51,520 bases of DNA. It comes from an uncultured Planctomycetia bacterium (GTDB lineage Bacteria > Omnitrophota > Gorgyraeia > 2-01-FULL-45-10). A program made the translations under genes and the position numbers. Within the stretch, counting starts at the first letter, position 1, and each line of letters starts with the position of its first letter. This document shows positions 8,917-48,833 of this stretch, one piece after another. The stretch covers positions 1 to 51,520 of the forward strand of contig CAYSSS010000003.1 in assembly GCA_964433975.1 (NCBI GenBank), in the 5' to 3' direction. The notes beneath the pieces are model-generated. The model did not search any database. It saw only the letters and a program-made list of their open reading frames with translations, and was not told the origin of the DNA.

Positions 8917-8917
8917 A

Positions 8918-11324: not shown

Positions 11325-11425
11325 ATGAAGTTCACGTAGACCCAGGATTCCTAACCCATAACTCCTTTATCCATAGTTAGTTAAGAAGCTGAGTATTTCA
11401 TGATTTTACCATTCAGTATGGGTCT

Positions 11426-11442: not shown

Positions 11443-11477
11443 ATGTAACTTGTGACGGATTGGGAGGAGCGTTTTTT

Positions 11478-11594
11478 ATGAAGAAGATGATGGAGTCACT
11501 GAAAGAGATGCTGGACGGGATTATGCACGAGATAGATGTGTATATGACGATACAGCGGTATCAGCGCAACACAAGAAAGTACAAGAGCGCCTAA
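11478..11594 (+). CDS. 38-codon small ORF (leader peptide or small protein)
   Basis: GGAGGAG lies 8 nt upstream of ATG 11478. Product is MKKMMESLKEMLDGIMHEIDVYMTIQRYQRNTRKYKSA. The TAA stop abuts the transferase ATG in the same frame. Confidence 0.45.
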   Translation: MKKMMESLKEMLDGIMHEIDVYMTIQRYQRNTRKYKSA

Positions 11595-12254: not shown

Positions 12255-12257
12255 ATT

Positions 12258-12926: not shown

Positions 12927-12967
12927 GAAGGACAATACACTGAAAACCGGAAATAGAGAAGGGTAGC

Positions 12968-14601: not shown

Positions 14602-14621
14602 ACAATGAAAGGAGAGAATAG

Positions 14622-15284
14622 ATGAAAGTATTTATAGTTTTAGCTGGAATTGTATTATCTTTGACATTAGCAAGCTCCGCTTATGCAGTGCCGTCTTATA
14701 CCGATCTATGGGATGTGAATACTGGATATATAAACAGTGTGACGGCTCCGGGCGGAATGGATTATCATGGATATAATCCAAATACTGGACTATATGGATC
14801 TAATCCATGGGATGCTTTTGGTGCCACGTATGGGGACGGCGTTTCGGTATTCACAGATGGATATGGACCGGGAACTGTTCACGAGCTTTATTGGACAACT
14901 AATACATATTTAACGATAAAAAGTTTTAACCTATATTCTGGAATGGAAGGGGTAAATAATACAAATAGAATTTTTGATCACTTTATTCTTCAAGCCTACA
15001 ATGGGAGTGGGTGGACAACTTTGTATGATAAAGATATTCCATTTCCTTATGGCTCTGGTACTAGTGGACTTACGCTAGATTTATTAAGCAATGTGGACAA
15101 TGTTATATCGAGCAATTCATTTAGGGCTGGTTTCAGACAAGTTTCAGACTATCAATATGCCGAAGGTCCGAGAGTTATTGAACTCGATGGTTTTGCGTCT
15201 GCGCTAGTTCCCGAGCCAGCGACGATGTCGCTTTTGGGGCTCGGAATGGCTGGGCTATTGAGATTTAGACGGAAGAAGGCATAA
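14622..15284 (+). CDS. PEP-CTERM sorting-domain protein 4
   Basis: Signal peptide (..ASSAYA/VP). C-terminus VPEPATMSLLGLGMAGLLRFRRKKA. Confidence 0.9.
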   Translation: MKVFIVLAGIVLSLTLASSAYAVPSYTDLWDVNTGYINSVTAPGGMDYHGYNPNTGLYGSNPWDAFGATYGDGVSVFTDGYGPGTVHELYWTTNTYLTIKSFNLYSGMEGVNNTNRIFDHFILQAYNGSGWTTLYDKDIPFPYGSGTSGLTLDLLSNVDNVISSNSFRAGFRQVSDYQYAEGPRVIELDGFASALVPEPATMSLLGLGMAGLLRFRRKKA

Positions 15285-15320
15285 ACTTTAATAAATATGA
15301 TAATGAAGGGAGGTGAAACG

Positions 15321-15983
15321 ATGAAGAAAGTGTTAGTTATACTGATAATTGGCTTGGTGCTGGGATGGATGAACATTTCTACCGCGCACGCTATCGTTAT
15401 TGATGGGATAGCGGCAGGCGGTGAATGGGTTGCGCCGTTCAAGATCCATGCCACAGATCCTGCAGAATCAGGGATATTTGATTATCTCGATGTTAAATTG
15501 CTTCTCGCCCAGTGGACAACTCCGGGCGGAGATATATATATACGCACAGATACGGTAATTAAGCCTGAATTTATTAAAGATTCAGGCTATCTGAACGACG
15601 CGTATATGGCCTGGCAATTTGATTTCGACGGTAATGGCTCTGTGGATCTATCGGCTCAACTCATCAAGGAAGTTGATTTCGGTCACGCTGATGGTAATAT
15701 CTATTACTATGTTGGCGGTACCCAATACGATAATGGTGTAACAAAATATTGGGGAAAGGACGACGTCTACGAGGTACTGATACCTGCAGAGAAGGTTCCG
15801 GTATTTAATCCTGGTAAGTTTCAGATGAGGCTCATATCTGAGTCAGCAAGTTCGTCTGGTGATGATAACTTGCCGGATACGGGATGGTCGAAGACAGTGC
15901 CTGAGCCGGGAAGCGCGATGCTTCTGGGTATGGGATTAGTTGGTTTCGTTGGTAGTTTGTTTCGCAGGAAGTTCAACGCATAA
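15321..15983 (+). CDS. PEP-CTERM sorting-domain protein 5 (divergent tail)
   Basis: GGAGG RBS before ATG 15321. Signal peptide MKKVLVILIIGLVLGWMNISTAHA. C-terminus VPEPGSAMLLGMGLVGFVGSLFRRKFNA. Confidence 0.85.
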   Translation: MKKVLVILIIGLVLGWMNISTAHAIVIDGIAAGGEWVAPFKIHATDPAESGIFDYLDVKLLLAQWTTPGGDIYIRTDTVIKPEFIKDSGYLNDAYMAWQFDFDGNGSVDLSAQLIKEVDFGHADGNIYYYVGGTQYDNGVTKYWGKDDVYEVLIPAEKVPVFNPGKFQMRLISESASSSGDDNLPDTGWSKTVPEPGSAMLLGMGLVGFVGSLFRRKFNA

Positions 15984-16009
15984 CCTCGTATTGCGTGTTG
16001 TGTGGATGA

Positions 16010-16048
16010 GATTGCTTCGTCGGCGCTAAAGCGCCTCCTCGCAATGAT
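16010..16048 (+). repeat. Hairpin repeat family, copy c (GATTGCTTCGTC-GGCGC-TAAA-GCGCC-TCCTCGCAATGA); possible operon-end hairpin
   Basis: Intergenic, 27 nt after the stop of the last PEP-CTERM gene. Confidence 0.8.
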
Positions 16049-16261
16049 AGTCTGATGCGATGCGCCATACGGGAGGATGCTTGAACCAGTAGGCATGCTT
16101 ACGTGGTGAGAGCATAAGACCGCAGGTTTTATGTTCTCCCACCGCAATCATAATACTATATTCTGTACTGTGGGGCAGGTGAAGACCTGCCCTGCAGTAT
16201 AATAGGGCTGGCTTTTTCCTTTACTTAACTCAGGTTTAGGGTATAATACCAATCTACTCAT

Positions 16262-17128
16262 ATGAAATATAATATCATAAAAAACTGGGGTGCGTCGCTG
16301 GGATTCATGAAGAAGAATCCTATTGTTATGATGCCTTTTGTCTTCATAGCTTTTATGGAACTCTTAGCGCTGGAATTTTTATATTTCTCTCCCAGGGTAC
16401 CGCTCTCATATATCGCAAATCCCATAATTCGTAAATTTTTCGGCGAAAACTTTATCCATTATCCGTTTGATCTTGTGCTGCTGCCGCGATTGTTCTATTA
16501 TCTGCAAGTGGCGATCTATGCGCTCGTGGGCGCTTTCCTGACCGCCGTGGCAGTGAATATATTCAAGAACTTTAGGGACGGCCTACCGGTCAAGGCGAAG
16601 GCGATGGTGAGAAATGCCCTTAAGAGTTACGCCTCTCTTGTAATCTACGCCCTCTTGGTCAGCGCTCTTATATTTGCTTTACAGAGAGCGGATACATTCA
16701 TCTTTTCAAAAGCCATGAGGCTGCTGGCGCGGATCCTGCCGATATCAATATCACCCGTTTACAAAATAGGTTTTACGCTTCTTTTATTCTTATCAAACAT
16801 TATTATGCAGACTTTTCTCATATGTACCATACCCATTATAGTTATACAGAAGACGTCGATACTAAAAGCCATTACCAGAAGTGTAATACTGGGTGCGCGT
16901 AATTTTTTTACTATCTTCGCTTTGATATTTTTGCCGTTTTTTATATACCTGCCTATAATATTTTTTAAAAGTTTTTCTACGCAGATCATGGATAGGATGT
17001 TTCCAGAAATAAATATATGCATTACGGTGGTTGGGGTACTCGTTACGATATTTCTGGATTCATTCGTTATCTTGTGTGTTTCGCAATTTATAATGGATAG
17101 GAAGAGCGTAGTGGAGAAGGTGGCGTGA
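16262..17128 (+). CDS. Polytopic membrane protein of unknown function
   Basis: 288 aa with about 6-7 hydrophobic helices. I recognise no family. GTGA overlap with the next gene. Confidence 0.7.
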   Translation: MKYNIIKNWGASLGFMKKNPIVMMPFVFIAFMELLALEFLYFSPRVPLSYIANPIIRKFFGENFIHYPFDLVLLPRLFYYLQVAIYALVGAFLTAVAVNIFKNFRDGLPVKAKAMVRNALKSYASLVIYALLVSALIFALQRADTFIFSKAMRLLARILPISISPVYKIGFTLLLFLSNIIMQTFLICTIPIIVIQKTSILKAITRSVILGARNFFTIFALIFLPFFIYLPIIFFKSFSTQIMDRMFPEINICITVVGVLVTIFLDSFVILCVSQFIMDRKSVVEKVA

Positions 17129-18000
17129 AGAAGACGATATGGGCCATGGCCCTGGTGCTAATTACCGTGTACGCGGTTTTTGCCGTAATAGGAGCCCGAG
17201 GTGAGTACTCGGCCGAGAAACTTCTCTATGGCGCTATCAAGATGAATGAGAAGATCACCGCCAACCCTGATGTAGTCCCGCCTAAATTACTCAATGACAT
17301 AGAAAAGAAGATGAATAAGCTGCTGGAAAAGTATCCTGATACCGAAGTTGTAAAGACGGCAAATATAAAATTAGCGGAGTTTTATATAGCATACAAAAAA
17401 TACGATCAGGCGCTCGCTCAGGCCGATAAGATAATTAAAAAGTACGAGAAGAATCCGGCTATATTAAGTATGGCGTATTTTCTTAAAGGGGTCGCCTACG
17501 AGAAGCAGGATAAGTGGCCGAGTGCACTAAAAGAGTATCGCACGATACGCGACAAATATACGGATACGCAATTGGGCATGCAGATGCCCATCTATATAGC
17601 CAACTACTACTCTCGAAAGGGCAGGGAGGCCCAGGCAAAGGAAGCCTATGGTGAAGCGGCGAGATTTTATGAGAAGATCGAAAGAGAGAACAGCAAAAAG
17701 GCCCTAGGTTACATGGCGTCTCTATTTTTGATACAGACATACATAAAAGCCGATAATGTTGAGAGCGCGGGTAGGCAAGTGGAGGAGACTCTTAATAAAT
17801 ATTTTAGTCAAATGGCGATAATGCAGCTGTTACCGCTGGTAGAGAGTATAATCGTGACCAAACTTAATGAGCCGAACAAGGCGGTAGAAATTTATAAAAC
17901 CGTTCTTGCAAAATCCAAGGACGAAAAATTTAACAAAGTACTACAGAAGAGGATAGAAGAGCTATCAAAAGAGGGTTCTGTTAGTATACAAAAAAGTTAG
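17125..18000 (+). CDS. Membrane-anchored TPR-like repeat protein
   Basis: N-terminal anchor MKKTIWAMALVLITVYAVFAVIG followed by helical repeats with TPR-like A/Y/L spacing (AEFYIAYKKYDQALAQADKII, AYFLKGVAYEKQDKWPSALKEY). Confidence 0.7.
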   Translation: MKKTIWAMALVLITVYAVFAVIGARGEYSAEKLLYGAIKMNEKITANPDVVPPKLLNDIEKKMNKLLEKYPDTEVVKTANIKLAEFYIAYKKYDQALAQADKIIKKYEKNPAILSMAYFLKGVAYEKQDKWPSALKEYRTIRDKYTDTQLGMQMPIYIANYYSRKGREAQAKEAYGEAARFYEKIERENSKKALGYMASLFLIQTYIKADNVESAGRQVEETLNKYFSQMAIMQLLPLVESIIVTKLNEPNKAVEIYKTVLAKSKDEKFNKVLQKRIEELSKEGSVSIQKS

Positions 18001-18037: not shown

Positions 18038-18322
18038 ATGAATGGAAATAATAATGGCAACGGAAAGACGCGTCTAAAAAAATTGACGCTGATGGGAAGG
18101 AAGTACCGAGGTATCATAAGTGAGATATCCAATCCCATAGATTCGACGAATCGGTTCATAAACCTTGCGTTGAATACAGTTGGGGATAATTCACAAGGAA
18201 GACAGTTCCTTCTGGAATCGAAGCAGGGGATCAGGAAGACGGCGGTTTTACTTAAAAGATTGAATGATTACTCGCAGAAGATAGAGAAAGAGATACTGGA
18301 GATGGCAAAGACAAATGGATAA
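18038..18322 (+). CDS. 94-aa DHp (HisKA)-like protein lacking the phospho-acceptor histidine
   Basis: RGIISEISNPIDSTNRFINLAL resembles the NtrB-type H-box (aHEIrNPL..i..f..L) with Ser28 in the His position. The second helix (GIRKTAVLLKRLNDYSQ) resembles DHp helix 2. There is no ATPase domain. The stop overlaps the activator start by 8 nt. Confidence 0.55.
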   Translation: MNGNNNGNGKTRLKKLTLMGRKYRGIISEISNPIDSTNRFINLALNTVGDNSQGRQFLLESKQGIRKTAVLLKRLNDYSQKIEKEILEMAKTNG

Positions 18323-19694
18323 ATCTCGGGTTCTTATAGTTAGCGGTGATAAGCTTACACAGAGATCCTTATACGAGCTGATATGCCGGCATGGCTATGA
18401 GGCGGCCATTACGCATTCCGTTAATGATGTCATGGCTCATCTCGATGAGAAGCTATGCCATGTCATCCTGGCTGATATAGACGGGGCTGATGACGTAGAG
18501 GTATTGAAGCTCATCAAGGATAAGGGGTATCCTTCTGAGATAATAACGATGGCCTCTCACGCCGATTCAATCGATAATATGAGCGATCTGGGTGCCGATT
18601 GTCTCATAATGCCGGTAGAAGACAAAAAGATACTCTCCTCGATCGAAAAGGCCTTATTAAAGGTATCCCACACCGAATCAAGACAGTCATTCCTGACGAA
18701 ACTACTCCATAAAGAGAGCACATTCCATGATCTAGTTGGGCAGAGCCAGTCCTTTAAAGATATATATTCTCTAGTAGACCGCATATCGAGCTCCAAGGCA
18801 ACGGTCCTTTTGCGCGGTGAGAGCGGCACGGGTAAGAGGATGGTGGCCAGAGCGATACATAAGGCTGACAAGAAGAGACGCGATAAGCCTTTTATGGAGA
18901 TATCCTGCGGGGCTCTTCCGCGCGATATCATCGAAAGCGAGCTCTTCGGCCACACGAAGGGGTCTTTTACGGGAGCCATAAATGAGCGCAAGGGGCGTTT
19001 TGAGTTGGCCCATGGCGGAACGGTCCTACTGGACGATATAGACTCTTTCTCGCTCGACCTGCAGGTAAAGCTCTTAAGGGTGCTCCAGCATAAGGAGTTC
19101 AAAAGGGTAGGGGACCACAAGACGATCAAAGTCGATGTCCGCTTCATAGTATCTACCAACCAGGACCTGGAGAAGGCGATAGCGGAGAAGAAGTTCAGGG
19201 AGGACTTATACTACCGCCTGAACGTCATATCTATCAATATTCCGCCATTAAGAAGCCGCAAAGAAGATCTTCCTCTATTAGTGAATCACTTCATGAGCCT
19301 TTATTCAAAAGAGAACCATAAAAAGATAAAACGCGTCTCTGATGAGACTATGCAGGTGCTGATGAACCACAGCTGGCCTGGAAACGTGAGAGAGCTAGAA
19401 AATATAGTGGAACGCGCCGTTATACTTGATACGGATGGCCTGATAGAGATCGACGATTTGCCTGAGCTATTAGTAGGTAGCACAATAGTCTATGCCGATA
19501 CGAGGATAAACAAGAATACGGGCGATGCCGTATCTTTGAAGGACGCTCTTAAAGAGCCTGAGATGGTATATATATTGAAGGTGATGAAAGAGGTGGGATG
19601 GAACAAAAAGAAGGCCGCCAGAAAATTAGGCGTCAACAGGACAACGCTCTATAATAAATTAAAGAAGTATAATCTTTTAGCCGAAGCAAAATAG
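18315..19694 (+). CDS. Sigma-54-dependent transcriptional activator (NtrC family; PrsR-like) with a degenerate receiver domain
   Basis: Receiver-like N-terminus. AAA+ core with GESGTGK, ELFGH, GSFTGA (GAFTGA loop) and FREDLYYRLNV. C-terminal Fis-type HTH AARKLGVNRTTLYNKLKKY. Confidence 0.9.
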   Translation: MDKSRVLIVSGDKLTQRSLYELICRHGYEAAITHSVNDVMAHLDEKLCHVILADIDGADDVEVLKLIKDKGYPSEIITMASHADSIDNMSDLGADCLIMPVEDKKILSSIEKALLKVSHTESRQSFLTKLLHKESTFHDLVGQSQSFKDIYSLVDRISSSKATVLLRGESGTGKRMVARAIHKADKKRRDKPFMEISCGALPRDIIESELFGHTKGSFTGAINERKGRFELAHGGTVLLDDIDSFSLDLQVKLLRVLQHKEFKRVGDHKTIKVDVRFIVSTNQDLEKAIAEKKFREDLYYRLNVISINIPPLRSRKEDLPLLVNHFMSLYSKENHKKIKRVSDETMQVLMNHSWPGNVRELENIVERAVILDTDGLIEIDDLPELLVGSTIVYADTRINKNTGDAVSLKDALKEPEMVYILKVMKEVGWNKKKAARKLGVNRTTLYNKLKKYNLLAEAK

Positions 19695-19711: not shown

Positions 19712-20773
19712 ATGTTGTACAAAGATCTAAGCTTGGCGGGTCTTGTAAATCTCGAAGATTGGCAGAAGATACAGGATTCTTTCTCCGAAGCCCTCGAAGT
19801 AACCTTAAGGACCGTTTCCCTGGACGGCAAGCTACTCACCAAAATAAGCAGTCCTAGCAGGTACTCCAGCGAAATCATTCCAAAGATCAAAGACCAGGAT
19901 AATTTCTACGGGAACGATAAGCCTGAGGATGTCCAAAAGAAGCTCTCACAGGCCGCCCAGACCGGAGGCAGTATTAAAATGCCTTTCGGCGTGGAAATCT
20001 TTGTAATCCCGATAAAAGCGATCGGCAACAGGGATGTAGCCTATATGACGATAGGGCCGATCATCCTGAAGAGCCGTAAGGCCGATGCCGAATATGCCAA
20101 AGAGGCGCTAGAGGCAGGGATAAATATTGACGAGCTTACAGACGCCCTTATTGATATAAATGTATTTTCCTATAGTAAGGTATATTCTCTTGTAGGCCTT
20201 ATAAAAGACATATTTTCACATATGGCTCAGACAGGCTACCATAAGAAGAGGCTGGGAGAGATAGCTCCCGAGGTCGTAGAGCTCGACCCGCTATTTTCAA
20301 AGTACTATGAAGAGAAGATATTGAGCGCGATGCTTAAGACCTGCTCTTTGGCACTTAACGCGGACTCTGGCTCCGTGATGATAGTGGATAAAGCGACCGG
20401 GACTTTACATATAAGAGCCGCTTCAAAGCTCGATGATAAGATAGTCAATAGGACCAGTATAAAGATAGGGGAGGGGATAGCAGGACTTGCGGCGGCTACA
20501 GCAAAGCCTATTATACTGCCTCAAGACAAGGATAAGAACGGTCTTTCAGCTAAGATGAGAAGGGCCGATATAAGATCATCTATGATATTGCCTTTCAATA
20601 AAGGCGACAGCCATGACGTCTATGGCGTAATAAACCTCAATATCACGCGAAAGAATACCGCTTTTTCGGAAAGAGACATCTCTGTAGTAAAAGAGCTGGT
20701 CAATATGACCAGCATCGCATTAATTCCTCTGTATCAACAGCATCTCAATTCGGATTCTTCGAAAATAAAATAG
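19712..20773 (+). CDS. Sensor protein: PocR-like N-terminal domain plus C-terminal GAF domain, no output domain
   Basis: N-terminus LEDWQKIQDSFSEALEVTLRTVSLDGKLL is PocR-like but lacks the usual Cys residues. The C-terminal ~150 aa are GAF-like (ADSGSVMIVDKATGTLHIRAA..IGEGIAGLAAATAKPIIL..VINLN). Confidence 0.6.
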   Translation: MLYKDLSLAGLVNLEDWQKIQDSFSEALEVTLRTVSLDGKLLTKISSPSRYSSEIIPKIKDQDNFYGNDKPEDVQKKLSQAAQTGGSIKMPFGVEIFVIPIKAIGNRDVAYMTIGPIILKSRKADAEYAKEALEAGINIDELTDALIDINVFSYSKVYSLVGLIKDIFSHMAQTGYHKKRLGEIAPEVVELDPLFSKYYEEKILSAMLKTCSLALNADSGSVMIVDKATGTLHIRAASKLDDKIVNRTSIKIGEGIAGLAAATAKPIILPQDKDKNGLSAKMRRADIRSSMILPFNKGDSHDVYGVINLNITRKNTAFSERDISVVKELVNMTSIALIPLYQQHLNSDSSKIK

Positions 20774-24070: not shown

Positions 24071-24099
24071 TTGACATATTGCATCTCGTGAGGTATATT
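24071..24099 (+). promoter_or_regulatory. Sigma-70-type promoter placed for a leaderless or near-leaderless transcript of the LAGLIDADG gene
   Basis: TTGACA (24071-24076), 17-nt spacer, TATATT (24094-24099). ATG 24106 lies 6 nt after the -10 box and no SD is visible. Confidence 0.45.
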
Positions 24100-24105
24100 T
24101 CAGAT

Positions 24106-24978
24106 ATGACAAGAGATTTAAGATTAAGGTTGAACAGGGATGAATTACACAGGTTATATCTAGTAGAGAAGAGGTCTCTCGAGGATATAGCTCGATTATA
24201 CGGGACATCCAGGGTTGCTGTCTGGAAATATTGTAAATCTGAGCGCATTACAAGACGCGACAGATCTGACGCGAGATTAGAGGCGCAGAAAAGGGGAAAA
24301 GTTTCTCAGGGTTATTTTGATATTAATGAGAACTTTTTTAGTTCATGGTCCTCGGAAATGGCTTATATTTTAGGTTTAATCGCTACGGACGGCTGTGTTT
24401 CTAAGTCTGGTTCCGTGTCGCTTTGTATCAATGATAAGGATCTGTTGGAAAAGGTTAAAAATGTTATGGGTTCAGCCCATACAATAAAATATTATGGTCA
24501 TCAGAAGGGACTATATAGTTTTAATTTTTCAAGACAAAAGTTATGCGCCGATTTAAAGCAACTCGGAATCCTTCCTAATAAAAGTCTTAATATACGATTT
24601 CCCGATGTTCCGGATGCCTTTTTGGTTGACTTTGTCAGAGGAGTTTTTGATGGAGACGGATCGGTATTCTTTGAAAAAAGGAGTCCAAAATTTCCGCTAA
24701 GGGCAAGCTTTATTAGTAGTTCTAAGGAGTTTATTGTTACGTTAGAATCTAAGCTTAGGGCATTGGGGATGCCTCAGAAAAACATTTGGCAACAACCAAC
24801 TAAAAACAGTATTTCATTTATCTTAAGGTATGCCCATAAAGATAGTGCTAAATTATTCAAAATTCTTTATCAAAATCTAACAAAAAATAGCATATTTTTA
24901 ATTCGAAAATATGAGCGTTTTTTACAGGGCATTCAACAATCTGAGGGAAGTCAACCAAAAACAGGAGGGGCTATTTAA
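24106..24978 (+). CDS. Free-standing double-motif LAGLIDADG homing-endonuclease-like protein with an N-terminal HTH
   Basis: Two LAGLIDADG motifs (AYILGLIATDGCV and FVRGVFDGDGSVF). N-terminal HTH-like segment RSLEDIARLYGTSRVAVWKY. The TTG 24079 start would lie inside the promoter. Confidence 0.8.
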   Translation: MTRDLRLRLNRDELHRLYLVEKRSLEDIARLYGTSRVAVWKYCKSERITRRDRSDARLEAQKRGKVSQGYFDINENFFSSWSSEMAYILGLIATDGCVSKSGSVSLCINDKDLLEKVKNVMGSAHTIKYYGHQKGLYSFNFSRQKLCADLKQLGILPNKSLNIRFPDVPDAFLVDFVRGVFDGDGSVFFEKRSPKFPLRASFISSSKEFIVTLESKLRALGMPQKNIWQQPTKNSISFILRYAHKDSAKLFKILYQNLTKNSIFLIRKYERFLQGIQQSEGSQPKTGGAI

Positions 24979-29594: not shown

Positions 29595-30830
29595 ATGAAG
29601 AATGTTATAGCGATGATATTGGGTGGTGGACAGGGTAAAAGGCTATTTCCCCTGACGATGTACAGGTCCAAACCGGCCGTTCCGATAGGCGGAAAATACC
29701 GCCTCATAGACATACCCATAAGCAACTGCCTGCATTCCGATATCAAGAATATATATGTTCTTACCCAATTCAACTCGGAATCGCTCAATAACCACATAAA
29801 TAACACCTACAGGTTCGACTATTTTTCACGAGCCTTTGTCAGGATCCTCGCGGCCGAACAGACGCTCCAGGGAGCAAACTGGTTCCAGGGGACTGCCGAC
29901 GCCGTCCGGAAAAATATTTTGCATCTTAATCTGAAGAGCGAAGACCAGGATATACTGATACTTTCCGGGGATCACATCTACGATATGGATTATCGCGAGC
30001 TGGTACATTTTCATAAGAGTAAGAAAGCCGACTTTACTGTATCGGTCGTTCCGGCATGCCATGAAGAAGTTCATGAGCTAGGTATATTGAAACTGGGAAA
30101 GGCAGGCAGGATACTCAAATTCAAGGAGAAGCCATCCACCCCTGCCGAGATGAGAGATCTTAAATCGAGGCCCGATCCGAATCGTCCTTATACGGCGTCG
30201 ATGGGGGTATATCTATTCAAGGCAAGCGTTCTTAAAGAGGCGCTAAAAGGCAATGATATAGATTTCGGGCGTGAAGTGATACCTCATTCCATAAAGAAGT
30301 TTAAAGGGTTCGGGTACATATTCGAAGGTTACTGGAAAGACGTGGGTACTATAAGCGCGTTCTATGAAGCCAATCTTGATATCGCCGCGTCCAAGCCGCA
30401 CATGTCTTTTCTTTACAAAGGGCGAGTATTTACCCGCCCGCGCTTCTTAACGTCCCCCAGGATAATGGATTGCCGTATAGAGAATTCGCTTATAGGCGAA
30501 GGCTGCATCATAGGCTCCGGTGAGATCAAGAATTCCACGGTTGGGTTAAGAAGCATTACGGGTAAAAACTGTAAGATCTCCAAGAGCGTCCTGATGGGAG
30601 CCGATTATTATGAAGGAGCCTCTATCCCAAAGGGTATGCTCAGGATAGGCATAGGTGATGGCGCCGTCATAGAGAATGCCATCATCGATAAGAACGCGAG
30701 GATCGGTAAGAACGTAGTGATAAAGAATTCGAACAATCTTAAGAATTACGACGGCGATTGCTACTTTATAAGAGATGGTATCGTGGTCATACCGAAGAAT
30801 GCCACTGTCAAGGACGGGACGAAGATTTAG
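29595..30830 (+). CDS. glgC: Glucose-1-phosphate adenylyltransferase
   Basis: AMILGGGQGKRLFPLTMYRSKPAVPIGGKYRLIDIPISNC..YVLTQFNSESLNNH followed by a C-terminal beta-helix. Confidence 0.9.
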   Translation: MKNVIAMILGGGQGKRLFPLTMYRSKPAVPIGGKYRLIDIPISNCLHSDIKNIYVLTQFNSESLNNHINNTYRFDYFSRAFVRILAAEQTLQGANWFQGTADAVRKNILHLNLKSEDQDILILSGDHIYDMDYRELVHFHKSKKADFTVSVVPACHEEVHELGILKLGKAGRILKFKEKPSTPAEMRDLKSRPDPNRPYTASMGVYLFKASVLKEALKGNDIDFGREVIPHSIKKFKGFGYIFEGYWKDVGTISAFYEANLDIAASKPHMSFLYKGRVFTRPRFLTSPRIMDCRIENSLIGEGCIIGSGEIKNSTVGLRSITGKNCKISKSVLMGADYYEGASIPKGMLRIGIGDGAVIENAIIDKNARIGKNVVIKNSNNLKNYDGDCYFIRDGIVVIPKNATVKDGTKI

Positions 30831-33737: not shown

Positions 33738-34385
33738 TTATCTCTTGTAGAACCTATCTATAGCGGCCATTACCTCTCGCGGAGTATCTACCACGGTGAA
33801 TAGCTTCAGATCCACTTTGTCTATCGTCCCCTGCGGTAGTAGAACGTTCTTTATCCATGAGATCAGCCCCTTCCAGTACTCTCTACCTACCAATATCACC
33901 GGAAAAGGGTCAACCCGCTTTGTCTGGACCAGCGTTATAGCTTCAAATAGCTCATCGAGCGTTCCAAAACCACCGGGAAATACCACGAACGCTTTCGAAT
34001 ACTTGGCGAACATCACCTTCCTGCAGAAGAAGTATTTAAAGTCTATCAACCTCGTAACATACTTATTCGGTCTTTGCACGATAGGTATAAGTATATTGAG
34101 CCCTATCGAATCGCCGCCGGCCCTCTTCGCGCCCTTATTTCCGGCCTCCATGATGCCGCTGCCGGCCCCCGTTATTACGGAATAGCCGTTCTTGGCGAGC
34201 AGATAGGCGGTATTCTCGGCTATCTTGTAGTATCTCTTGGTAGATTTCTTATGCTTTGCGGAACCGAATATTGAAACGGCTTTCTTGATATTTGAAAGCT
34301 CTTCAAAGCCGTCAACGAACTCGCTCATTATGCGGAATATTCGCCACGGATCTTCTTTTATGAAATCCTGCTTAAGGTAGGTCAT
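33738..34385 (-). CDS. LOG family protein (TIGR00730; nucleotide 5'-monophosphate phosphoribohydrolase)
   Basis: ITGAGSGIMEAGNKGA and PGGFGTLDELFE motifs. Confidence 0.9.
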   Translation of the reverse strand: MTYLKQDFIKEDPWRIFRIMSEFVDGFEELSNIKKAVSIFGSAKHKKSTKRYYKIAENTAYLLAKNGYSVITGAGSGIMEAGNKGAKRAGGDSIGLNILIPIVQRPNKYVTRLIDFKYFFCRKVMFAKYSKAFVVFPGGFGTLDELFEAITLVQTKRVDPFPVILVGREYWKGLISWIKNVLLPQGTIDKVDLKLFTVVDTPREVMAAIDRFYKR

Positions 34386-34389
34386 AATA

Positions 34390-35520
34390 TTAAAGTGTCT
34401 TTATCGAGTCGTAGGACCCGAATGGATTCTGCTCTTTTTCCGCGTTCTGGGCGTCCAGGAGCCACTCGCCGTCAACCACGAACTTATACCTGTATTTCCC
34501 CGGAGTAAGGGCGAAATTCCCCTGCCAGCTTCCATCGTTGAGTTTTGCCAGACGGCTGGCCTCATTCATCTTCCAGTGATTAAAGTCTCCCACCACGTAT
34601 ACTTCTTTAGCTTCGGGCGCACTTATCGAGAAGATGGTGCCCCTATTAACAGGTTCTTCCGTAGGCTCTATTGCAGGTATTCTGGGAGTAACCGGTAAAG
34701 CCGCTTCTTCCTGTTTGTAGGCGACTTCCGCCAGCGCCTGTTTAAACTCTTCCGCACCCGCCATCCTTACGACTTCCTGTGCCAGGGAGATATGATCACG
34801 CGCGCCGTTAGATTTGGCGTCGAGTTGCAGCACAGATATCCCCTTCGCCACAGATCTTCTTAGCGTGACATTCAGCCTTATTACCGTTTCAAGAAGTTGA
34901 TCCTTGAAGAACGCCTTTATCTCGTTCAGCATTATTTCGGAATACTTGAGCCTTCTGTCGTAAAGAGTGGCCAGGGCTCTTACCTGCGGAGTATGGTTTA
35001 TCTTAACCTTAATAAGTTCTACCATGCCCAGCAGTTTTCCTACGCCCATAAGCGAGAAGGCGCCCATATCCACAGGGACTATGACAAGATCAGCCGCCCT
35101 GAGCGCGTTAAATGTCAGAAATCCGAGGCTTGGCGGGCAGTCGATTATCGTATATTCGTAATTGAGCTGGCCCGCGTATATCGATTCGAATAACTTCGAT
35201 ACCGCGCCCTCCGTGTCTTTCAATTCCTGCTCCAGTGTGCTTAAGAGTATATTGGAAGGTATCATGTCCAGGTTATCGGATACGTTGACCACGCAGTGGC
35301 CGATGCCGCGCCTCTTTTCTTGATTATCCGTGAGAACATTGTAGATCGATTTGTCCTGAGGCGCGTTTGATAATCCCAAGCCGAATGTCGCGTGTGCCTG
35401 CGGATCAAGATCTATCAGAAGGACCCTTCTTCCCAGATGCGCGATGGCGCTTGAAAGATTTATTGCTGTCGTGGTCTTGCCGCAGCCGCCCTTTTGATTC
35501 GCTATAGCTACTATTCTCAT
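34390..35520 (-). CDS. ParA/Soj-family ATPase fused to a C-terminal AMPK-beta-type glycogen-binding domain (CBM48)
   Basis: Deviant Walker A NQKGGCGKTT and LIDLDPQ. The C-terminal ~85 aa are FSISAPEAKEVYVVGDFNHWK...GSWQGNFALTPGKYRYKFVVDGEWLLD. Confidence 0.85.
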   Translation of the reverse strand: MRIVAIANQKGGCGKTTTAINLSSAIAHLGRRVLLIDLDPQAHATFGLGLSNAPQDKSIYNVLTDNQEKRRGIGHCVVNVSDNLDMIPSNILLSTLEQELKDTEGAVSKLFESIYAGQLNYEYTIIDCPPSLGFLTFNALRAADLVIVPVDMGAFSLMGVGKLLGMVELIKVKINHTPQVRALATLYDRRLKYSEIMLNEIKAFFKDQLLETVIRLNVTLRRSVAKGISVLQLDAKSNGARDHISLAQEVVRMAGAEEFKQALAEVAYKQEEAALPVTPRIPAIEPTEEPVNRGTIFSISAPEAKEVYVVGDFNHWKMNEASRLAKLNDGSWQGNFALTPGKYRYKFVVDGEWLLDAQNAEKEQNPFGSYDSIKTL

Positions 35521-35555
35521 CTGCGAGTCCTCCCTTTCACTAAAACATACATTAA

Positions 35556-35649: not shown

Positions 35650-37881
35650 CTAATTCCCTAATCTTGAAGAGATAGCGTTTCTCCATGTATCGCTCAATGT
35701 CTTTACGTCCTGATCAATCAGGACGGCTTTTCCGCAGCTGATAGTCAGTTTTTTACCATCGACATTGCCCAATATTTTGCAGGAGACGGAATATTTTTTT
35801 GCTATTTCCTTCAGATTGTTCAAATTATCTTTCTCGACAGAAACGACTATTCTGGAAGGCGCTTCGCCAAAGAGAAGCGCGTCTTGCCTTACGTCGCTTG
35901 AGTCTAATTGTATATTAGCTCCCGACAGCTTGTTTTTATTTGTGATGCACGACTCCACTAGCGTTACAGCCAATCCACCCTCTGAACAATCATGAGAGGA
36001 GCTGATAACGCCTCTCTGGGCGGCCTCCAGGCAGGCTTGTTGAACCGCTTTTTCTTTCGATATGTCTATCTGGGGATTACCCTTCTTTAAGCCGTGTATC
36101 AGATACAGGTATTCGCTGCCCGAGAGGTCTGAACTATTTTCACCGAGAAGGACTATTACGTCGCCGTCTTTTTTGAAATCCTGGGTGACGCATTTTGCTG
36201 CATCCTCGATGAGGCCCACTACTCCGATCATCGGCGTTGGGTCTATCGCTCCCTTTGGGTTCTCATTGTAGAAGCTTACATTGCCGCTGATGACGGGTAT
36301 GTCCAAGCCTTTGCATCCTGCCGAAATCCCTTCTACACATTTTTCGAACTGCCAGTAGTTTTCCGGCTTCATCGGGTTTCCGAAATTGAGCCCGTCTGTT
36401 ATAGCGAGAGGCCTGCCCCCGGCACATACCACATTCCTCGCCGCTTCGGCAACTGCCATCATCGCGCCGATATAAGGATTAAGGTAGCAGAACCTGCCGT
36501 TGCAGTCGACGCTTATTGCTATAGCTTTTTTTGTACCCACGATCCTTATAACAGCGGCGTCCGAACCCGCGTTAACCACCACATCGTCCTTATTCACAAA
36601 TGTGAATTTTTTATAAGCAGATTCCTTGCTCGCGATGCTCGGGGAATCGAGCAGTTTCAAAAGAGCCTCGTTGAAATCACTGGGCTCCTTTAAGGATTTG
36701 TAGTCTATCTTCTGGGAGTCTTTTAAATACGCTGGCTCCTTTGTTTCTCTTGTGTAAAGCGGCGCCTTTTTTGTGAGCAGTTCAGCCGACACCTCGCAGA
36801 CCACAACTCCTTTTTCTTTGACCCTCATCATCTTATCGTCTGTTACCTTACCTATCTTCACCGCATTTATTTTCCATTTCTTTAATACGGCTAAAGCATC
36901 ATCCTCTTTGCCGCTCTTTAGAATGGCGAGCATCCTTTCCTGCGACTCGGACAATAGGATCTCATAAGGGGTCATGTTTTTTTCTCGTTGGGGTACCAGA
37001 GCCACGTCGATTTCTATGCCGGTTCCGCTTCTTGTTGCTGTTTCGCATGAAGAGCATGTGAGGCCCGCGGCTCCCATGTCCTGCATTCCTGCAACAAGAC
37101 CTTTTTCTATCAATTCAAGACACGCCTTTCTCAGGCGCTTCCCAAGCTCCGGATCGCCTATAGCAACGGCACTTTTAGAGGACGACGATTCTTCCGTTAT
37201 CTCCTGCGAAGCGAAGCTTGCGCCGCCGACACCATCTCTGCCCGTATCGCCGCCTATGTAATAGACGGGGTTGCCGATACCGCTTGCGGTCCCCCTCATG
37301 ATATCTTTCTTGTTTACGATCCCTACAACGAAGGCGTTGACAAGCGGGTTTCCTTCATAGCTTTCATCAAAATATGCCTCGCCTCCTACGGCGCTGACCT
37401 CGGCGGTGTTGGCGTAATGCGCGAGCCCTCTGATCACCTCTTTAAACAAATATTTGACCTTTTCGTTCCGAAGATTCCCGAACCTTAGGGCCCCCAGCAC
37501 GGCCACCGGTCTTGCGCCCGTGGTGAATATGTCCCTGACGCATCCGCCTATTCCGGTAGCGGAAGCCTCGAAAGGTTCAACGGCGGAAGGATGATTGTGC
37601 GATTCTATCTTGAACGAAACCCCCCAGCCGTCCCCCAAGTCGACTATGCCGGAGTTTTCTTCGCCCGCACCTACGAGCACATCCTTGCCTTTTGTCGGAA
37701 ATAATTTAAATAATCTTCTTGAATTTTTGTAACTACAGTGCTCAGACCACATCGCGGAAAAGACGCCGAGTTCCGTGACATTAGGTTCCCTTCCGAGCAA
37801 TTTTTTTATTTCACCGAACTCTTCTTCACTAAGCCCCATCTCTTTAGCTAAATCAGTGTTAACCTTGATCGTTGCCAACAT
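35650..37881 (-). CDS. purL: Phosphoribosylformylglycinamidine synthase subunit PurL (FGAM synthase II)
   Basis: 743 aa. EHCSYKNS, ESHNHPSAVEPF and GNPLVNAFVVG are typical small-type PurL motifs. Confidence 0.95.
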   Translation of the reverse strand: MLATIKVNTDLAKEMGLSEEEFGEIKKLLGREPNVTELGVFSAMWSEHCSYKNSRRLFKLFPTKGKDVLVGAGEENSGIVDLGDGWGVSFKIESHNHPSAVEPFEASATGIGGCVRDIFTTGARPVAVLGALRFGNLRNEKVKYLFKEVIRGLAHYANTAEVSAVGGEAYFDESYEGNPLVNAFVVGIVNKKDIMRGTASGIGNPVYYIGGDTGRDGVGGASFASQEITEESSSSKSAVAIGDPELGKRLRKACLELIEKGLVAGMQDMGAAGLTCSSCETATRSGTGIEIDVALVPQREKNMTPYEILLSESQERMLAILKSGKEDDALAVLKKWKINAVKIGKVTDDKMMRVKEKGVVVCEVSAELLTKKAPLYTRETKEPAYLKDSQKIDYKSLKEPSDFNEALLKLLDSPSIASKESAYKKFTFVNKDDVVVNAGSDAAVIRIVGTKKAIAISVDCNGRFCYLNPYIGAMMAVAEAARNVVCAGGRPLAITDGLNFGNPMKPENYWQFEKCVEGISAGCKGLDIPVISGNVSFYNENPKGAIDPTPMIGVVGLIEDAAKCVTQDFKKDGDVIVLLGENSSDLSGSEYLYLIHGLKKGNPQIDISKEKAVQQACLEAAQRGVISSSHDCSEGGLAVTLVESCITNKNKLSGANIQLDSSDVRQDALLFGEAPSRIVVSVEKDNLNNLKEIAKKYSVSCKILGNVDGKKLTISCGKAVLIDQDVKTLSDTWRNAISSRLGN

Positions 37882-45479: not shown

Positions 45480-47003
45480 TCAAGTTACAAAGAGATTGCG
45501 GGAGGAGAATTTGCCATCGGTAGTGAGGTTAAGTCCAAGCATCTTTAGCCCCACCTCATCTCCAGGTGAAGGTATATGAGTTATATGCATTTCGCAGCCT
45601 TTTAATTCGACCAACTTTTTCATGGCGATCTCGGCCGTATGATTGGCAGAAGCGCTTATTGAGAGCGCTATAAGCGTCTCTTCCAGGTCAAGGCTCTCAG
45701 GATCTCCCTTAAGGATATCTTCTCTCAGCTTAGAGATCTGGTTTATTATCTGAGGCGAGAGCAGCAAGATCTCATCTGGAATATTCGCTAGGACCTTTAT
45801 GGCGTTCAGGATCAGGCTTGATGAAGCGTTCATCAAAGCGCAGTTCTTCCCCGTTATCAAGCGGCCATCCTTTAATTCTAGCGCGGCTCCGCAGTAGATG
45901 CCGGCGAAACCTTTGCCGTTCTTCTCGGCGTCTTCGGCCGCCTTTCTAGAGACCTCTACCACTTTTCTATCCGTAACTTTTACACTCATGCCCTCCATTA
46001 ACATAGATGCCCTGTCAACGGTCTCCCTCTTTTCTATGCCCAGTACATACTCGGCATTGTACCTGAAGTATCTTCTTATCAACTCCTGCTTAGCCGCCTC
46101 CTGGACCACGGCATCGTTAACTATTCCGAAGCCTGCCCTGTTGACTCCCATATCCGTCGGAGAATTGTACGTGGGCAGATTCGCATCTTTTTTCAATATC
46201 CTGGTAAGAATAAGCTTTAATATTGGGAAACTCTCCACGTCACGGTTGTAGTTTATGGCCGCCTCTTTATACTGCGCCAGGTGAAACGGGTCCACGAGAT
46301 TAAAGTCCTGTATATCCGCTGTGGCCGCCTCATACGCAACATTGACGGGGTGCTTTAACAGCAGGTTCCATATCGGGAACGTTTCGAATTTGGCGTACCC
46401 GGAGTTAACGCCGCGTTTGTGATCATGGTACAGCTGTGAAAGGCATATCGAAAGCTTCCCGCTGTTGGGGCCCGGAGCCGTAACTACTACTATAGGCTTA
46501 CTCGTCTCGATGTACTCATTTTTGCCGAATCCGCCTTCGCTTACCACGAGGTCTATATCGGAGGGATATTTTTCTATGGGGTAATGCAGATAGACCTTTA
46601 CGCCTCTGCGCTCGAGCTTATTTTTAAATATGACGGCGGAAGGCTGATTCGCGAAACGGGTTATAGTAACGGCGAGTATGTCGAGCCCCCATTTTCTTAA
46701 GTCATCGATCAACTTGAATGTCGCGGCATCGTATGTTATGCCGAAGTCGCCTCGCACCCTTCCGCTCTCTATGTCGCCCGCATATATACCGAGTACTATA
46801 TCGATCTTATCCTTGAGTGACTGGAGCAGCCTTATTTTGACGTTGGGATCGTATCCGGGCAGGACCCTTGCGGCGTGGTAATCAAAACATAGTTTGCCAC
46901 CGAACTCCAGATACATCTTATTGTCAAATTTTTTGACTCGATTAAGAATAGCCGCCGTCTGTTCTTTTAAATACTTTTCGTTATCGAAACCGGTCTTTCT
47001 CAT
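45480..47003 (-). CDS. DUF1846 (UPF0371) family protein
   Basis: MRKTGFDNEKYLKEQTAAILNRV... is the family-typical N-terminus. AGGAGA RBS before ATG 47003, which is preferred over the 47075 start overlapping the upstream gene. Confidence 0.8.
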   Translation of the reverse strand: MRKTGFDNEKYLKEQTAAILNRVKKFDNKMYLEFGGKLCFDYHAARVLPGYDPNVKIRLLQSLKDKIDIVLGIYAGDIESGRVRGDFGITYDAATFKLIDDLRKWGLDILAVTITRFANQPSAVIFKNKLERRGVKVYLHYPIEKYPSDIDLVVSEGGFGKNEYIETSKPIVVVTAPGPNSGKLSICLSQLYHDHKRGVNSGYAKFETFPIWNLLLKHPVNVAYEAATADIQDFNLVDPFHLAQYKEAAINYNRDVESFPILKLILTRILKKDANLPTYNSPTDMGVNRAGFGIVNDAVVQEAAKQELIRRYFRYNAEYVLGIEKRETVDRASMLMEGMSVKVTDRKVVEVSRKAAEDAEKNGKGFAGIYCGAALELKDGRLITGKNCALMNASSSLILNAIKVLANIPDEILLLSPQIINQISKLREDILKGDPESLDLEETLIALSISASANHTAEIAMKKLVELKGCEMHITHIPSPGDEVGLKMLGLNLTTDGKFSSRNLFVT

Positions 47004-47005
47004 CT

Positions 47006-47380
47006 CTATTCTCCTGATATGAACTTGCGGAAATCTGCCATCGCCTGCCTGAATGTCTCCTGGTTGGACTGCCAATCCTTGTATTTAGGCGTCTCTGTGA
47101 CCCATTCTTCGAATAACGCCCACCTGAGTTTGGCGGCATCGGCCTGTTCTGCAGATAGCCCGAGATTACCCTTTATTACCGGCTGCATGCTTGGAAGGTT
47201 GGCCTTACCCCTGTAATTACTTATGGGAGTTACTTTGCCGGTAAGCATATTATACTTCGAGGGGATCTTCATTCCCGCTATCTCGTAATTAACGACCCGC
47301 GTGAATATCGATTTATATGACGTTACGATAAGGGCAACGACGGCTATTATTATGACCGCCGGGATAAAGATCTTCTTCAT
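47006..47380 (-). CDS. Small membrane-anchored protein of unknown function
   Basis: 124 aa. N-terminal anchor MKKIFIPAVIIIAVVALIV. Tightly packed with its neighbours. Confidence 0.55.
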   Translation of the reverse strand: MKKIFIPAVIIIAVVALIVTSYKSIFTRVVNYEIAGMKIPSKYNMLTGKVTPISNYRGKANLPSMQPVIKGNLGLSAEQADAAKLRWALFEEWVTETPKYKDWQSNQETFRQAMADFRKFISGE

Positions 47381-47395: not shown

Positions 47396-48139
47396 CTAAT
47401 TTTGGAACTCCATTTTATACAAACTATCGTTGGTGCCGGTAACCCACAGGTATCTTCCCTCCCAGGCTATCCCTGTAGTTTTTCGGGCCGGGGACTTTAT
47501 ATATCCTGTTATCTCCAATTTTTCTATGTCTATCCTGTATATGCGTCTGGCATACCAGCAGCTGACCCACATATCTTTACCGTCCCATGCCAGATGCGCC
47601 GGCTCAAGGATCCTGCCGATCTCCGCTGTGCTTAAGATATTCATATCGGCATCCATCTTAAGAAGATGGAATTTGGTTCCCGTAAGAGACCGTGTCCATG
47701 TCACTATAAATAGGTTAGAGCCGGTCCATGCCGCACCAGCCGGGTGCGCCGGCTCCACGGACTTCTGCGCCAGCGCGTACATGTTATCACCCTCTATCTC
47801 CGCTGTATATACTTTTTTTGCGTCCCAGTCGGTTACAAAGAAGATCGCCTCATCTCTCGGGGTTATTGCCTCCGTGAAGGAGCCCGCCGGTACTATCTTC
47901 CTGATTATCTCCTTGGAGAGCGTGTCCACGACCCACGTATCGCCCTTCTTCCCATTACAAACCCATATATCTTTTCCGTCGGAATAAAGCCCTTCATGGT
48001 ACCATTTTGGTATCTTTATCTTTGCGACCGCCTTAGCCTTTATCCGGTGGTAGTCCTTGGACAGTGTAAAGCCCGAAAGCGCAAATACCATGATAACCAG
48101 CAGGATAAACTTAAAAGCTCTCAAGAGATCTATCCCCAA
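47396..48139 (-). CDS. Secreted beta-propeller protein, glutamine cyclotransferase-like
   Basis: Signal anchor. YHEGLYSDGKDIWVCNGKKGDTWVVD and LAWDGKDMWVSCWYARRIYRIDIEKLEITGYI resemble QC-family blades. Weak, pattern-level evidence only. Confidence 0.4.
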   Translation of the reverse strand: MGIDLLRAFKFILLVIMVFALSGFTLSKDYHRIKAKAVAKIKIPKWYHEGLYSDGKDIWVCNGKKGDTWVVDTLSKEIIRKIVPAGSFTEAITPRDEAIFFVTDWDAKKVYTAEIEGDNMYALAQKSVEPAHPAGAAWTGSNLFIVTWTRSLTGTKFHLLKMDADMNILSTAEIGRILEPAHLAWDGKDMWVSCWYARRIYRIDIEKLEITGYIKSPARKTTGIAWEGRYLWVTGTNDSLYKMEFQN

Positions 48140-48143
48140 TATG

Positions 48144-48833
48144 TTAGAATTTGTAATATGCTCCCGCGCTTAAGGAAGTTTCGTCTATGAAATGGCCTTC
48201 AACGCTTATGTATGTATTCAGAGTCATCTTTATATCGCAGCCGATCACCGCGCCTCCATAATATCTTGGCGAGCGGTTCTTCCTGTCTATATCATTCGTC
48301 TTCTGTATCAGGTTTCCGTACGACACTTTACCGCCCGCGAAAGGAGTAAAGATCCCTATGTCTTTTGAAGAGACCAAAGATACCTGCCAGTCTTCATAGA
48401 TCGCCATGCGTTTATCGCCGTTCACATATCTATTGGCCGGGTGGGTGCTCGTATGCTGGAAGCCGGTTACGACACGCACCTTATTTGCCGCATCATCAAT
48501 AACTCTCAATCTGAATCCATAACCTCCGGCAAAGCCGTTGCTATGCTGGACCGTAGGGTGCACTCCGCCTTTCTCTCTTACATTGCCGAACCCTATCTTT
48601 CCGTCCAGCGTAAGCCAGTTGAATACTCCGTAAGAGAGCGTATAATAGTTCTGGAAGCTTCGGACGTTTCCGTAGGATTTGACGAGATCGTGCTTGAATA
48701 TGCTGTTATTTTGATAGCCGGTTATATACCCGCCTTTGTATGGTATATTTGTGCCATCAGTGGGTGCCGCGAAGAGAGAGTATGCGGTGAAGAGGATAGC
48801 TGCTATTAAACCATATACCTTTATATTCCGCAT
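48144..48833 (-). CDS. Outer-membrane beta-barrel protein
   Basis: Signal peptide (..YSLFA/AP). Alternating beta-strand pattern and a C-terminal aromatic signature ..GAYYKF. Confidence 0.6.
   Translation of the reverse strand: MRNIKVYGLIAAILFTAYSLFAAPTDGTNIPYKGGYITGYQNNSIFKHDLVKSYGNVRSFQNYYTLSYGVFNWLTLDGKIGFGNVREKGGVHPTVQHSNGFAGGYGFRLRVIDDAANKVRVVTGFQHTSTHPANRYVNGDKRMAIYEDWQVSLVSSKDIGIFTPFAGGKVSYGNLIQKTNDIDRKNRSPRYYGGAVIGCDIKMTLNTYISVEGHFIDETSLSAGAYYKF

Follow-up and report, generated by a model that had tools for sequence, protein, structure and literature searches.

What does a ParA ATPase do when it carries a glycogen-binding module of its own? Bacteria generally use ParA/MinD ATPases to place large objects, such as chromosomes, plasmids, carboxysomes, chemoreceptor arrays and the division site. 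The gene that raises the question lies on the minus strand (34390..35520) of a 51,520 nt stretch of DNA, which we call the window (contig CAYSSS010000003.1 of assembly GCA_964433975.1, positions 1-51,520). The source is an uncultured Planctomycetia bacterium that GTDB places in Omnitrophota; Gorgyraeia; 2-01-FULL-45-10. The gene encodes 376 amino acids (aa) followed by a stop codon. A first-pass annotation of the bare sequence had read it as a ParA/Soj-type ATPase fused to a carbohydrate-binding module of family 48 (CBM48) of the AMPK beta type, and had suggested that it positions or segregates glycogen granules on the nucleoid without an adaptor. Our preferred reading is that the fusion protein is an ATP-switched tether that may organise or partition glycogen (alpha-glucan) particles. 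We give this reading a probability of about 0.4.

The fusion itself is confirmed in full. In the list of open reading frames (ORFs) the gene is a single frame, and both of its domains score far above chance level and above their Pfam gathering scores. On the ATPase side, AAA_31 covers aa 1-176 (175.6 bits, E = 1.2e-51, gathering score 27) and CbiA covers aa 4-229 (72.1 bits, E = 5e-20, gathering score 25.4). At the other end, the C-terminal string quoted in the first-pass annotation is present, AMPK1_CBM covers aa 303-360 (44.3 bits, E = 2e-11, gathering score 26.8) and CBM_48 covers aa 292-353 (30.6 bits, E = 4e-7, gathering score 22.4). A Shine-Dalgarno sequence, GGGAGG, can be read directly at 35529..35534 on the minus strand, 8 nt 5' of the ATG at 35520.

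The ATPase half looks like an active ParA of the chromosomal (Soj) type, judging by its sequence. This domain (aa 1-255; 34756..35520, minus strand) is defined by phmmer matches to the PDB and by invariant catalytic residues. Both motifs named in the first-pass annotation are there: the deviant Walker A motif KGGCGKTT at aa 10-17 (35470..35493, minus strand), with K10 as the signature lysine, and motif 2, DLDPQ, at aa 37-41. Among solved structures, aa 2-252 match the Myxococcus xanthus ParA best (8RAY, E = 2e-42; identified as such in PMC12462528). Further Soj matches are those of Thermus thermophilus (1WCV/2BEK) and Helicobacter pylori (6IUB), and the E values of the whole group range from 2e-42 to 4e-35. 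McdA, ParF and MinD match far more weakly (53 bits for McdA vs 149 bits for ParA). In an alignment of 79 non-redundant homologues, the residues K10, K15, T16, D37, D39 and D127 are invariant, and the three aspartates align with D58, D60 and D145 of the M. xanthus protein.

The protein reaches no equivalog cutoff in NCBIfam; for ParA_partition it has 103.9 bits where 180 are required. With 45.8 bits against a cutoff of 212.9 for minD_bact, the protein is not a MinD by this measure either, and the amphipathic membrane-targeting helix found at the C-terminus of MinD proteins is absent; the C-terminus of the fusion protein is the CBM48. The profiles of BY-kinases and BcsQ also stay below their cutoffs (cellulose_yhjQ, 71.9 vs 157.85; eps_fam, 29.6 vs 108; pepcterm_TyrKin, 25.9 vs 230.65).

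At the C-terminus sits a CBM48 of the AMPK beta type whose predicted glycogen-binding site is intact. It spans aa 293-376 (34393..34644, minus strand), as defined by Pfam, PDB profile comparison, AlphaFold2 (AF2) and Foldseek. When a profile of the C-terminal 91 aa was compared with the PDB, the modules of AMPK beta1 and beta2 came first (E about 1e-7), followed by pullulanase, LSF1, GlgB, Sip2 and SEX4. A full-length AF2 model gave a poor CBM (pLDDT 55-75). We replaced it with a domain-only model from a deeper alignment of 44 sequences, which has a mean pLDDT of 92.8. The top Foldseek match of this model is AMPK beta1 (1Z0M; TM-score 0.80/0.90, root mean square deviation 1.3 Å, 28% identity). 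AMPK beta chains or yeast Sip2 account for 43 of its first 50 matches, and the remaining seven are SEX4 and a feruloyl-esterase CBM48.

The residues of AMPK beta1 were paired with those of the fusion protein through the PDB profile alignment, and conservation was counted over the 79 homologues. W100 corresponds to W316 (79/79), K126 to K346 (76/79), W133 to W353 (78/79) and G147 to G368 (78/79). T148 corresponds to S369, a position that is T, G or S in the family. Two positions differ in kind: L146 is F367 here and Phe or Tyr in 77 of the 79, and N150 is D371, conserved in 76. In AMPK, glycogen binding is lost with the mutations W100G and K126Q and reduced with W133L and G147R (PMC6274970). 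The first-pass annotation had allowed that the domain might be a generic Ig-like or E-set fold without sugar-binding residues. This can be ruled out, given the match to the AMPK beta fold and the conservation of the contact residues across the 79 homologues, including the aromatic residues W316 and W353.

A different ligand is harder to dismiss than a different fold. The CBM48-like module could bind another glycan or a protein, as a xylobiose-bound feruloyl-esterase module (8BF3, 6RZN) is among the fold matches and the equivalents of N150 and L146 have changed to Asp and Phe/Tyr. We nevertheless consider a ligand other than glycogen improbable. The equivalents of W100, K126 and W133, which are the most critical residues in AMPK, are kept in 76-79 of the 79 homologues. 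The top matches by sequence and by fold all bind alpha-glucans (AMPK beta, SNF1 Sip2, SEX4, LSF1, GlgB and pullulanase). Furthermore, the protein is cytoplasmic, and glycogen is the obvious polymeric glucan in that compartment.

The ParA-linked modules also stand apart from other CBM48 modules. In an exhaustive search of 1.84 billion representatives with a CBM-only profile, they form a distinct, tight group with about 135-145 bits per domain, against about 45-80 bits for each domain of other CBM48 proteins, of which many have 3-18 tandem copies. As a separate observation, AMPK-type CBM48 modules related to this one occur in 11,807 bacterial proteins at E<=1e-3. Among them are a large class of about 480 aa in which the module is repeated four times in tandem, and giants that have as many as 18 copies.

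Between the two domains lies a linker (aa 256-292; 34645..34755, minus strand). In the full-length AF2 model the last ParA helix runs from aa 238 to 269, such that the linker begins as a helical extension, and aa 270-293 have a pLDDT below 50. Beyond about aa 269 the linker is thus probably a disordered tether. Family members differ in how long the stretch between ATPase and CBM is, from a few residues to more than 60, and show no sequence conservation in it. A linker that is free to vary in both length and sequence suggests a tether and not a fixed regulatory or allosteric interface.

How widespread is this architecture? In a word-indexed protein search, homologues with 55-100% identity and the same architecture fill at least 120 clusters, all full length except for one N-terminally truncated entry. 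Where a cluster has a name, it reads 'AAA family ATPase [Candidatus Omnitrophota]' or 'chromosome partitioning protein'. When one genome per GTDB species was scanned, 139 genomes contained a relative. Most of them are Omnitrophota, and metagenome-assembled genomes (MAGs) labelled 'uncultured Planctomycetia' show Omnitrophota synteny. Purifying selection acts on the fusion family, which occurs in at least 139 species and under three phylum labels. Fifteen loci come from Thermodesulfobacteriota/Syntrophales/Syntrophorhabdales and from one Binatia MAG. Their proteins show 51-57% identity along the whole length and the same Pfam architecture, with scores above the gathering scores. The 15 copies group as a single clade inside the Omnitrophota diversity when a neighbour-joining tree is drawn. 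A single nested clade is consistent with one horizontal transfer and suggests that the fusion was acquired as an accessory gene.

The ATPase half resembles chromosomal ParAs. Does it also keep their contacts with ParB and DNA? In M. xanthus, the N-terminal helix of ParB (L11, R13, L15, L18, I19) docks in a hydrophobic pocket of ParA formed by V116, L150, L152, L155, L187 and L192, and ParB R13 contacts ParA Y81, E82, D110 and E117 (PMC12462528). The mutation R238E in the same ParA abolishes non-specific DNA binding (PMC12462528). We mapped these residues through the alignment with 8RAY, with the numbering anchored on D58, D60 and N64, and counted conservation over the 79 homologues as before. 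In the pocket, L132, F134 and F137 (for L150, L152 and L155) are invariant, L169 (for L187) is kept in 78, I174 (for L192) is Ile or Leu in 72, and Q98 (for V116) is Gln in 75. At the R13 site, Y60 (for Y81) is kept in 78 and E99 (for E117) in all 79. The other two positions have changed: N61 (for E82) is Asn in 69, and L92 (for D110) is Leu in 62. Read at the level of sequence, the groove for a ParB-type activating peptide is conserved in the fusion family. Hence the protein still looks suited to receiving such a peptide.

The DNA-binding arginine has fared differently. R238 corresponds to T219, and across the 79 homologues this position is Ala in 36, Thr in 24, Ser in 11, Asp in 6, Lys in 1 and Val in 1. 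Basic residues nearby are kept (R190 in 76, R215 in 72, and a Lys or Arg at position 221 in all 79). R190 and T219 are the positions that we take to correspond to R189 and R218 of Bacillus subtilis Soj. With the equivalent of R238 replaced, nucleoid binding becomes uncertain, and canonical nucleoid binding is no safe assumption. At the same time, with R190, R215 and K/R221 conserved, the protein may still bind DNA.

A chromosomal Soj would be expected in the company of parB and parS, and a parB/parS pair is what the first-pass annotation had named as evidence against its own reading. We called and clustered ORFs in 87 sources, taking 10 kb on each side of each match. None of the ORFs in the window is ParB-like, and parB adjoins the fusion gene in 0 of 85 loci. 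Neither the ParB box II regex GERRxRA nor a second deviant-Walker-A protein was found among 1279 neighbour ORFs from the 87 sources. A parS consensus with up to 3 mismatches was not found in the window, and an exact match to parS, TGTTNCACGTGAAACA, was not found in 86 related loci. The gene that does follow the fusion gene, where the first-pass annotation had noted that parB is missing, belongs to the LOG/Lysine_decarbox family. Measured against ParABS systems, the fusion protein has neither partner nor parS in the loci covered, lacks the DNA-binding arginine and stays below the NCBIfam cutoff, and it keeps the ParB-peptide groove.

These data bear directly on the simplest alternative, namely that the protein is the ordinary chromosomal Soj with an extra domain. 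Its best solved relatives are indeed chromosomal ParAs, and in one clade the second gene downstream is mnmG (gidA), a frequent neighbour of parAB. Apart from the parB and parS missing from the loci covered, this explanation has to accommodate the low ParA_partition score, the loss of the R238 equivalent and the nesting of the Thermodesulfobacteriota/Binatia clade within Omnitrophota, which suggests a horizontally acquired accessory gene. One MAG, BS750m-G80, even contains two ParA-CBM paralogues that are 72% identical (L074 on JADHYN010000005.1 and L076 on JADHYN010000003.1). We therefore regard an ordinary Soj as highly improbable.

A second alternative keeps the chromosome as the output and makes glycogen the input. 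The AMPK-like CBM would report glycogen, and glycogen binding would modulate or sequester the ParA, with consequences for chromosome segregation, replication or the choice of division site. By structure the CBM comes closest to the glycogen-sensing domain of AMPK beta, the ParA domain is closest to chromosomal ParA/Soj, and since the ParB-peptide groove is kept, a ParB encoded elsewhere could still act on it. The linker, unconserved and from a few to more than 60 residues long, does not point to a fixed interface between CBM and ATPase, and confidence at the junction of the two domains is low in the full-length model. Together with the loss of the DNA-binding arginine and with parB and parS not found in the 87 sources, this makes a glycogen sensor rather unlikely in our view.

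If the groove still receives a peptide, which protein provides it? Two gene families next to the fusion gene are candidate activating partners. The first, c1, would serve in Omnitrophota. It lies directly upstream of the ParA-CBM gene in 44 Omnitrophota loci, in at least three unrelated genomic contexts (for example at L005:9287-9997, and also in L060, L061 and L080). The c1 proteins have 230-310 aa, an N-terminus of the form M-S-K-[IT]-[IL]-E-x-L-[KR], a second motif [LI]-A-x-[TI]-Y-F, one hydrophobic helix that is predicted to be transmembrane, and a beta-rich C-terminal domain. The N-terminal M-S-K-[IT]-[IL]-E-x-L fits four of the five positions of the ParB motif L11-x-R13-x-L15-x-x-L18-I19 (PMC12462528). 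Searches of Pfam, NCBIfam and the PDB with c1 gave no significant match, the nearest being CBM30 with E = 0.018. In MAG BS750m-G80, one of the two paralogues is preceded by c1 and the other is not. Hence c1 could act in trans.

The second candidate, c13, would take this role in Thermodesulfobacteriota. It lies directly downstream of the ParA-CBM gene in 14 of the 15 Thermodesulfobacteriota/Binatia loci (L037:11181-11618 and L033, L036, L038-L042, L045, L046 and L052-L055). Its proteins have 145-190 aa, a basic N-terminus, MPFIRKRR, and a conserved C-terminal motif, LEEVxNNxEVxDAYLG. We read its domain as FN3-like from the sequence pattern alone. No Pfam or NCBIfam match of c13 is significant; a match resembling the C-terminus of LivG/UrtD reaches 24 bits and stays below the gathering score. 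With the groove conserved, and with c1 or c13 as a conserved neighbour in most lineages, the adaptor-free mode of action proposed in the first-pass annotation is doubtful. Neither gene is in the window.

The predicted membrane helix of c1 leads to a third alternative. Here the cytoplasmic N-terminus of c1 would recruit and switch the ParA-CBM dimer, and glycogen or nascent alpha-glucan would be anchored at the cell envelope, much as BcsQ, which belongs to the ParA/MinD family, organises cellulose synthase. The position of c1 directly upstream in unrelated contexts, the presence of c1 and ParA-CBM homologues on the same contigs, the resemblance of the c1 N-terminus to the ParB motif, the conserved groove for such a peptide and the loss of the canonical DNA-binding arginine all speak for a membrane-linked organiser. 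However, c1 is absent from the window, from its closest relatives and from the Thermodesulfobacteriota clade. Topology and fold of c1 are only predicted, with no Pfam, NCBIfam or PDB match to lean on, and the motif resemblance is short. We consider this alternative possible but unlikely.

Taken one step further, ParA-CBM48 and c1 might together form an undescribed two-component positioning system. A Soj-derived ATPase without the canonical DNA-binding arginine and with its own glycogen module would be switched by a ParB-like peptide that a membrane-anchored protein presents. We consider this, too, possible but unlikely. If it were true, glycogen would, as the first polysaccharide, join the cargoes of ParA/MinD ATPases. 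Furthermore, the matrix or the activator would be the envelope and not a cargo-bound adaptor on the nucleoid.

How would the ATP-switched glycogen tether that we prefer work? ATP binding would lead to a ParA sandwich dimer and thereby to two CBM48 modules per particle-binding unit, which would grip multivalent glycogen strongly in the ATP form only. The dimer would be held on a cellular matrix. For Soj-like ParAs the default matrix is the nucleoid, and here the contact could possibly be made through R190, R215 and K/R221, which we invoke because the canonical arginine is missing. A partner peptide in the conserved groove, perhaps the N-terminus of c1 in most Omnitrophota and c13 in Thermodesulfobacteriota, would then trigger hydrolysis and release. 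Repeated cycles would spread glycogen granules in the cell or share them between daughters. Such sharing would matter in very small cells with few granules. The intact ATPase motifs, the AMPK-type CBM residues, the free linker, the partner groove and the presence of glgC in the organism are all consistent with such a tether. So are the purifying selection on the family and the lack of parB and parS in the window and in 86 related loci.

Several observations weigh against the tether. Its weak links are the matrix, which could be nucleoid or envelope, and the partner in the clade of the window, and the tether as such is drawn from sequence and models. The position of the DNA-binding arginine is non-basic in 78 of 79 members (A, T, S or D in 77), which weakens the nucleoid-based positioning of the first-pass annotation. 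As a predicted membrane protein, c1 would fit a nucleoid ratchet poorly. Neither c1 nor c13 is found near the fusion gene in the window or in its nearest relatives (L007-L013), and HMMs of both found nothing among all six-frame ORFs of the window (best E = 0.02, 9 bits). Some CBM48 modules bind other glycans, and the feruloyl-esterase CBM48 with xylobiose is among the fold matches. Finally, in other Omnitrophota clades the fusion gene lies among tilS, rmuC, uvrD, PFOR and the like, with no glycogen gene nearby.

The last point concerns glgC, which encodes ADP-glucose pyrophosphorylase. In the window, it lies at 29595..30830 on the plus strand (Pfam NTP_transferase and LbH_GLGC), convergent with the fusion gene and 3.6 kb from its stop codon, close to the 4 kb given in the first-pass annotation. 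This proximity is conserved in one Omnitrophota clade, with glgC at the same position in 23 syntenic loci. It is weak functional evidence, because glgC is part of a housekeeping block (carB-purF-guaA-purL...mnmG) and is absent from the neighbourhood in other clades. Glycogen synthesis is commonly encoded in Omnitrophota MAGs (PMC8542988).

In the clade of the window, the block reads carB-purF-guaA-purL-(purQ)-fusion-(small membrane ORF)-LOG-mnmG-radical SAM, with glgC convergent. The LOG/Lysine_decarbox-family gene (33738..34385, minus strand; Pfam) begins after a spacer of 4 nt at the 3' end of the fusion gene, and it is the downstream neighbour in 40 related loci. The two genes are probably co-transcribed. 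No terminator-like site was found between them on the minus strand, in a promoter and terminator scan whose counts are indistinguishable from those of shuffled sequence. Scans of the window for tRNAs and Rfam families came back empty. On the other side of the fusion gene, purL (35650-37881, minus strand) encodes 743 aa without a PurS fusion, and there is no purQ between it and the ParA-CBM gene. Most syntenic relatives (compare L001, L003 and L005) have a PurS-PurL fusion of 950-1000 aa followed by purQ.

The rest of the window holds a few further features. A large exopolysaccharide/PEP-CTERM locus occupies 444-18000 on the plus strand. It contains three GT4 glycosyltransferases and one GT2 glycosyltransferase, a hexapeptide transferase, a polysaccharide deacetylase (DUF3473), the exosortase EpsH (9765-10607), a DUF3485/EpsI-like protein, a sugar transferase (11595-12254), at least four PEP-CTERM proteins (12258-15284) and a TPR protein. 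On its 3' side follow a sigma-54 activator (18315-19694) and a PocR-GAF sensor (19712-20773). Between about 21000 and 26000 gene orientation changes from plus to minus, and the cumulative GC skew peaks at about 25-26 kb, a pattern that may be convergent, terminus-like or just a matter of operon structure. The GC content at 24-26 kb is 0.396, the second lowest of the window after the first 6 kb, and a free-standing ORF with a LAGLIDADG_3 domain lies at 24079-24978 on the plus strand. A DUF1846 protein is encoded at 45480-47075 on the minus strand, followed by two conserved ORFs of 247 and 229 aa without a Pfam match (47396-48833, minus strand). The equivalent end of locus L003 has unannotated ORFs of similar size, 241 and 229 aa.

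If the fusion protein is a glycogen tether, then ParA/MinD ATPases have a new class of cargo, and cargo recognition is built into the ATPase itself. It would open a direct and testable route to the way in which bacteria that are very small and uncultured share out their energy reserves at division. It would also be a simple, genetically encoded, ATP-switchable glycogen tether for use in cell biology. Even if the protein turns out to be a glycogen-binding ATPase with another function, the family is conserved and unannotated. The names in use, 'AAA family ATPase' (NCBI) and 'chromosome partitioning protein' (JGI), would both deserve correction. A review of ParA-family cargoes and functions covers chromosomes, plasmids, flagella, carboxysomes, the divisome, chemotaxis arrays, cellulose synthase and a genomic island, and glycogen is not among them (PMC9178275). 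We found no link between ParA and glycogen in the literature searched, a single collection and hence no proof of absence.

How does the fusion protein compare with systems that are already known? With chromosomal ParA/Soj proteins (8RAY, 1WCV/2BEK, 6IUB) it shares the fold, the signature lysine, the DxDPQ motif 2, the Walker B motif, and the hydrophobic groove and Y/E site for the N-terminal peptide of ParB. It differs from them in having no parB or parS nearby, in the replaced arginine, in the added linker and CBM48, and in scoring below the ParA_partition cutoff. Its CBM has the same fold as that of AMPK beta (1Z0M/1Z0N, 4YEF), with the equivalents of W100, K126, W133, G147 and T148 conserved. 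In AMPK this module packs on the kinase, whereas in the fusion protein it sits on a free linker to a P-loop ATPase, with Phe/Tyr for L146 and Asp for N150.

Two other systems place storage polymers. PhaM tethers PHB granules to the nucleoid, such that a storage granule is shared between daughters via a segregating scaffold. Unlike the fusion protein, PhaM is not an ATPase, its sequence is unrelated and its polymer is not the presumed glycogen. In plants, PTST proteins, which combine a coiled coil with a CBM48, direct the initiation of starch granules. They share with the fusion protein a non-catalytic CBM48 that decides, or in our case would decide, the site of an alpha-glucan granule, but they are eukaryotic and have no ATPase switch.

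By analogy of function, the fusion protein would most resemble orphan ParA cargo systems such as McdAB. Like McdAB and the orphan ParAs PpfA, ParC, PomZ, MipZ and BcsQ, it is a ParA/MinD ATPase that is encoded outside a parAB operon and has an apparent non-DNA cargo. As in these systems, a separate small gene, here for a candidate partner, adjoins the ATPase gene in most lineages. The difference lies in how cargo is recognised. In the known systems a separate adaptor does this, whereas the fusion protein carries the cargo module in the ATPase itself, and its presumed cargo is a polysaccharide.

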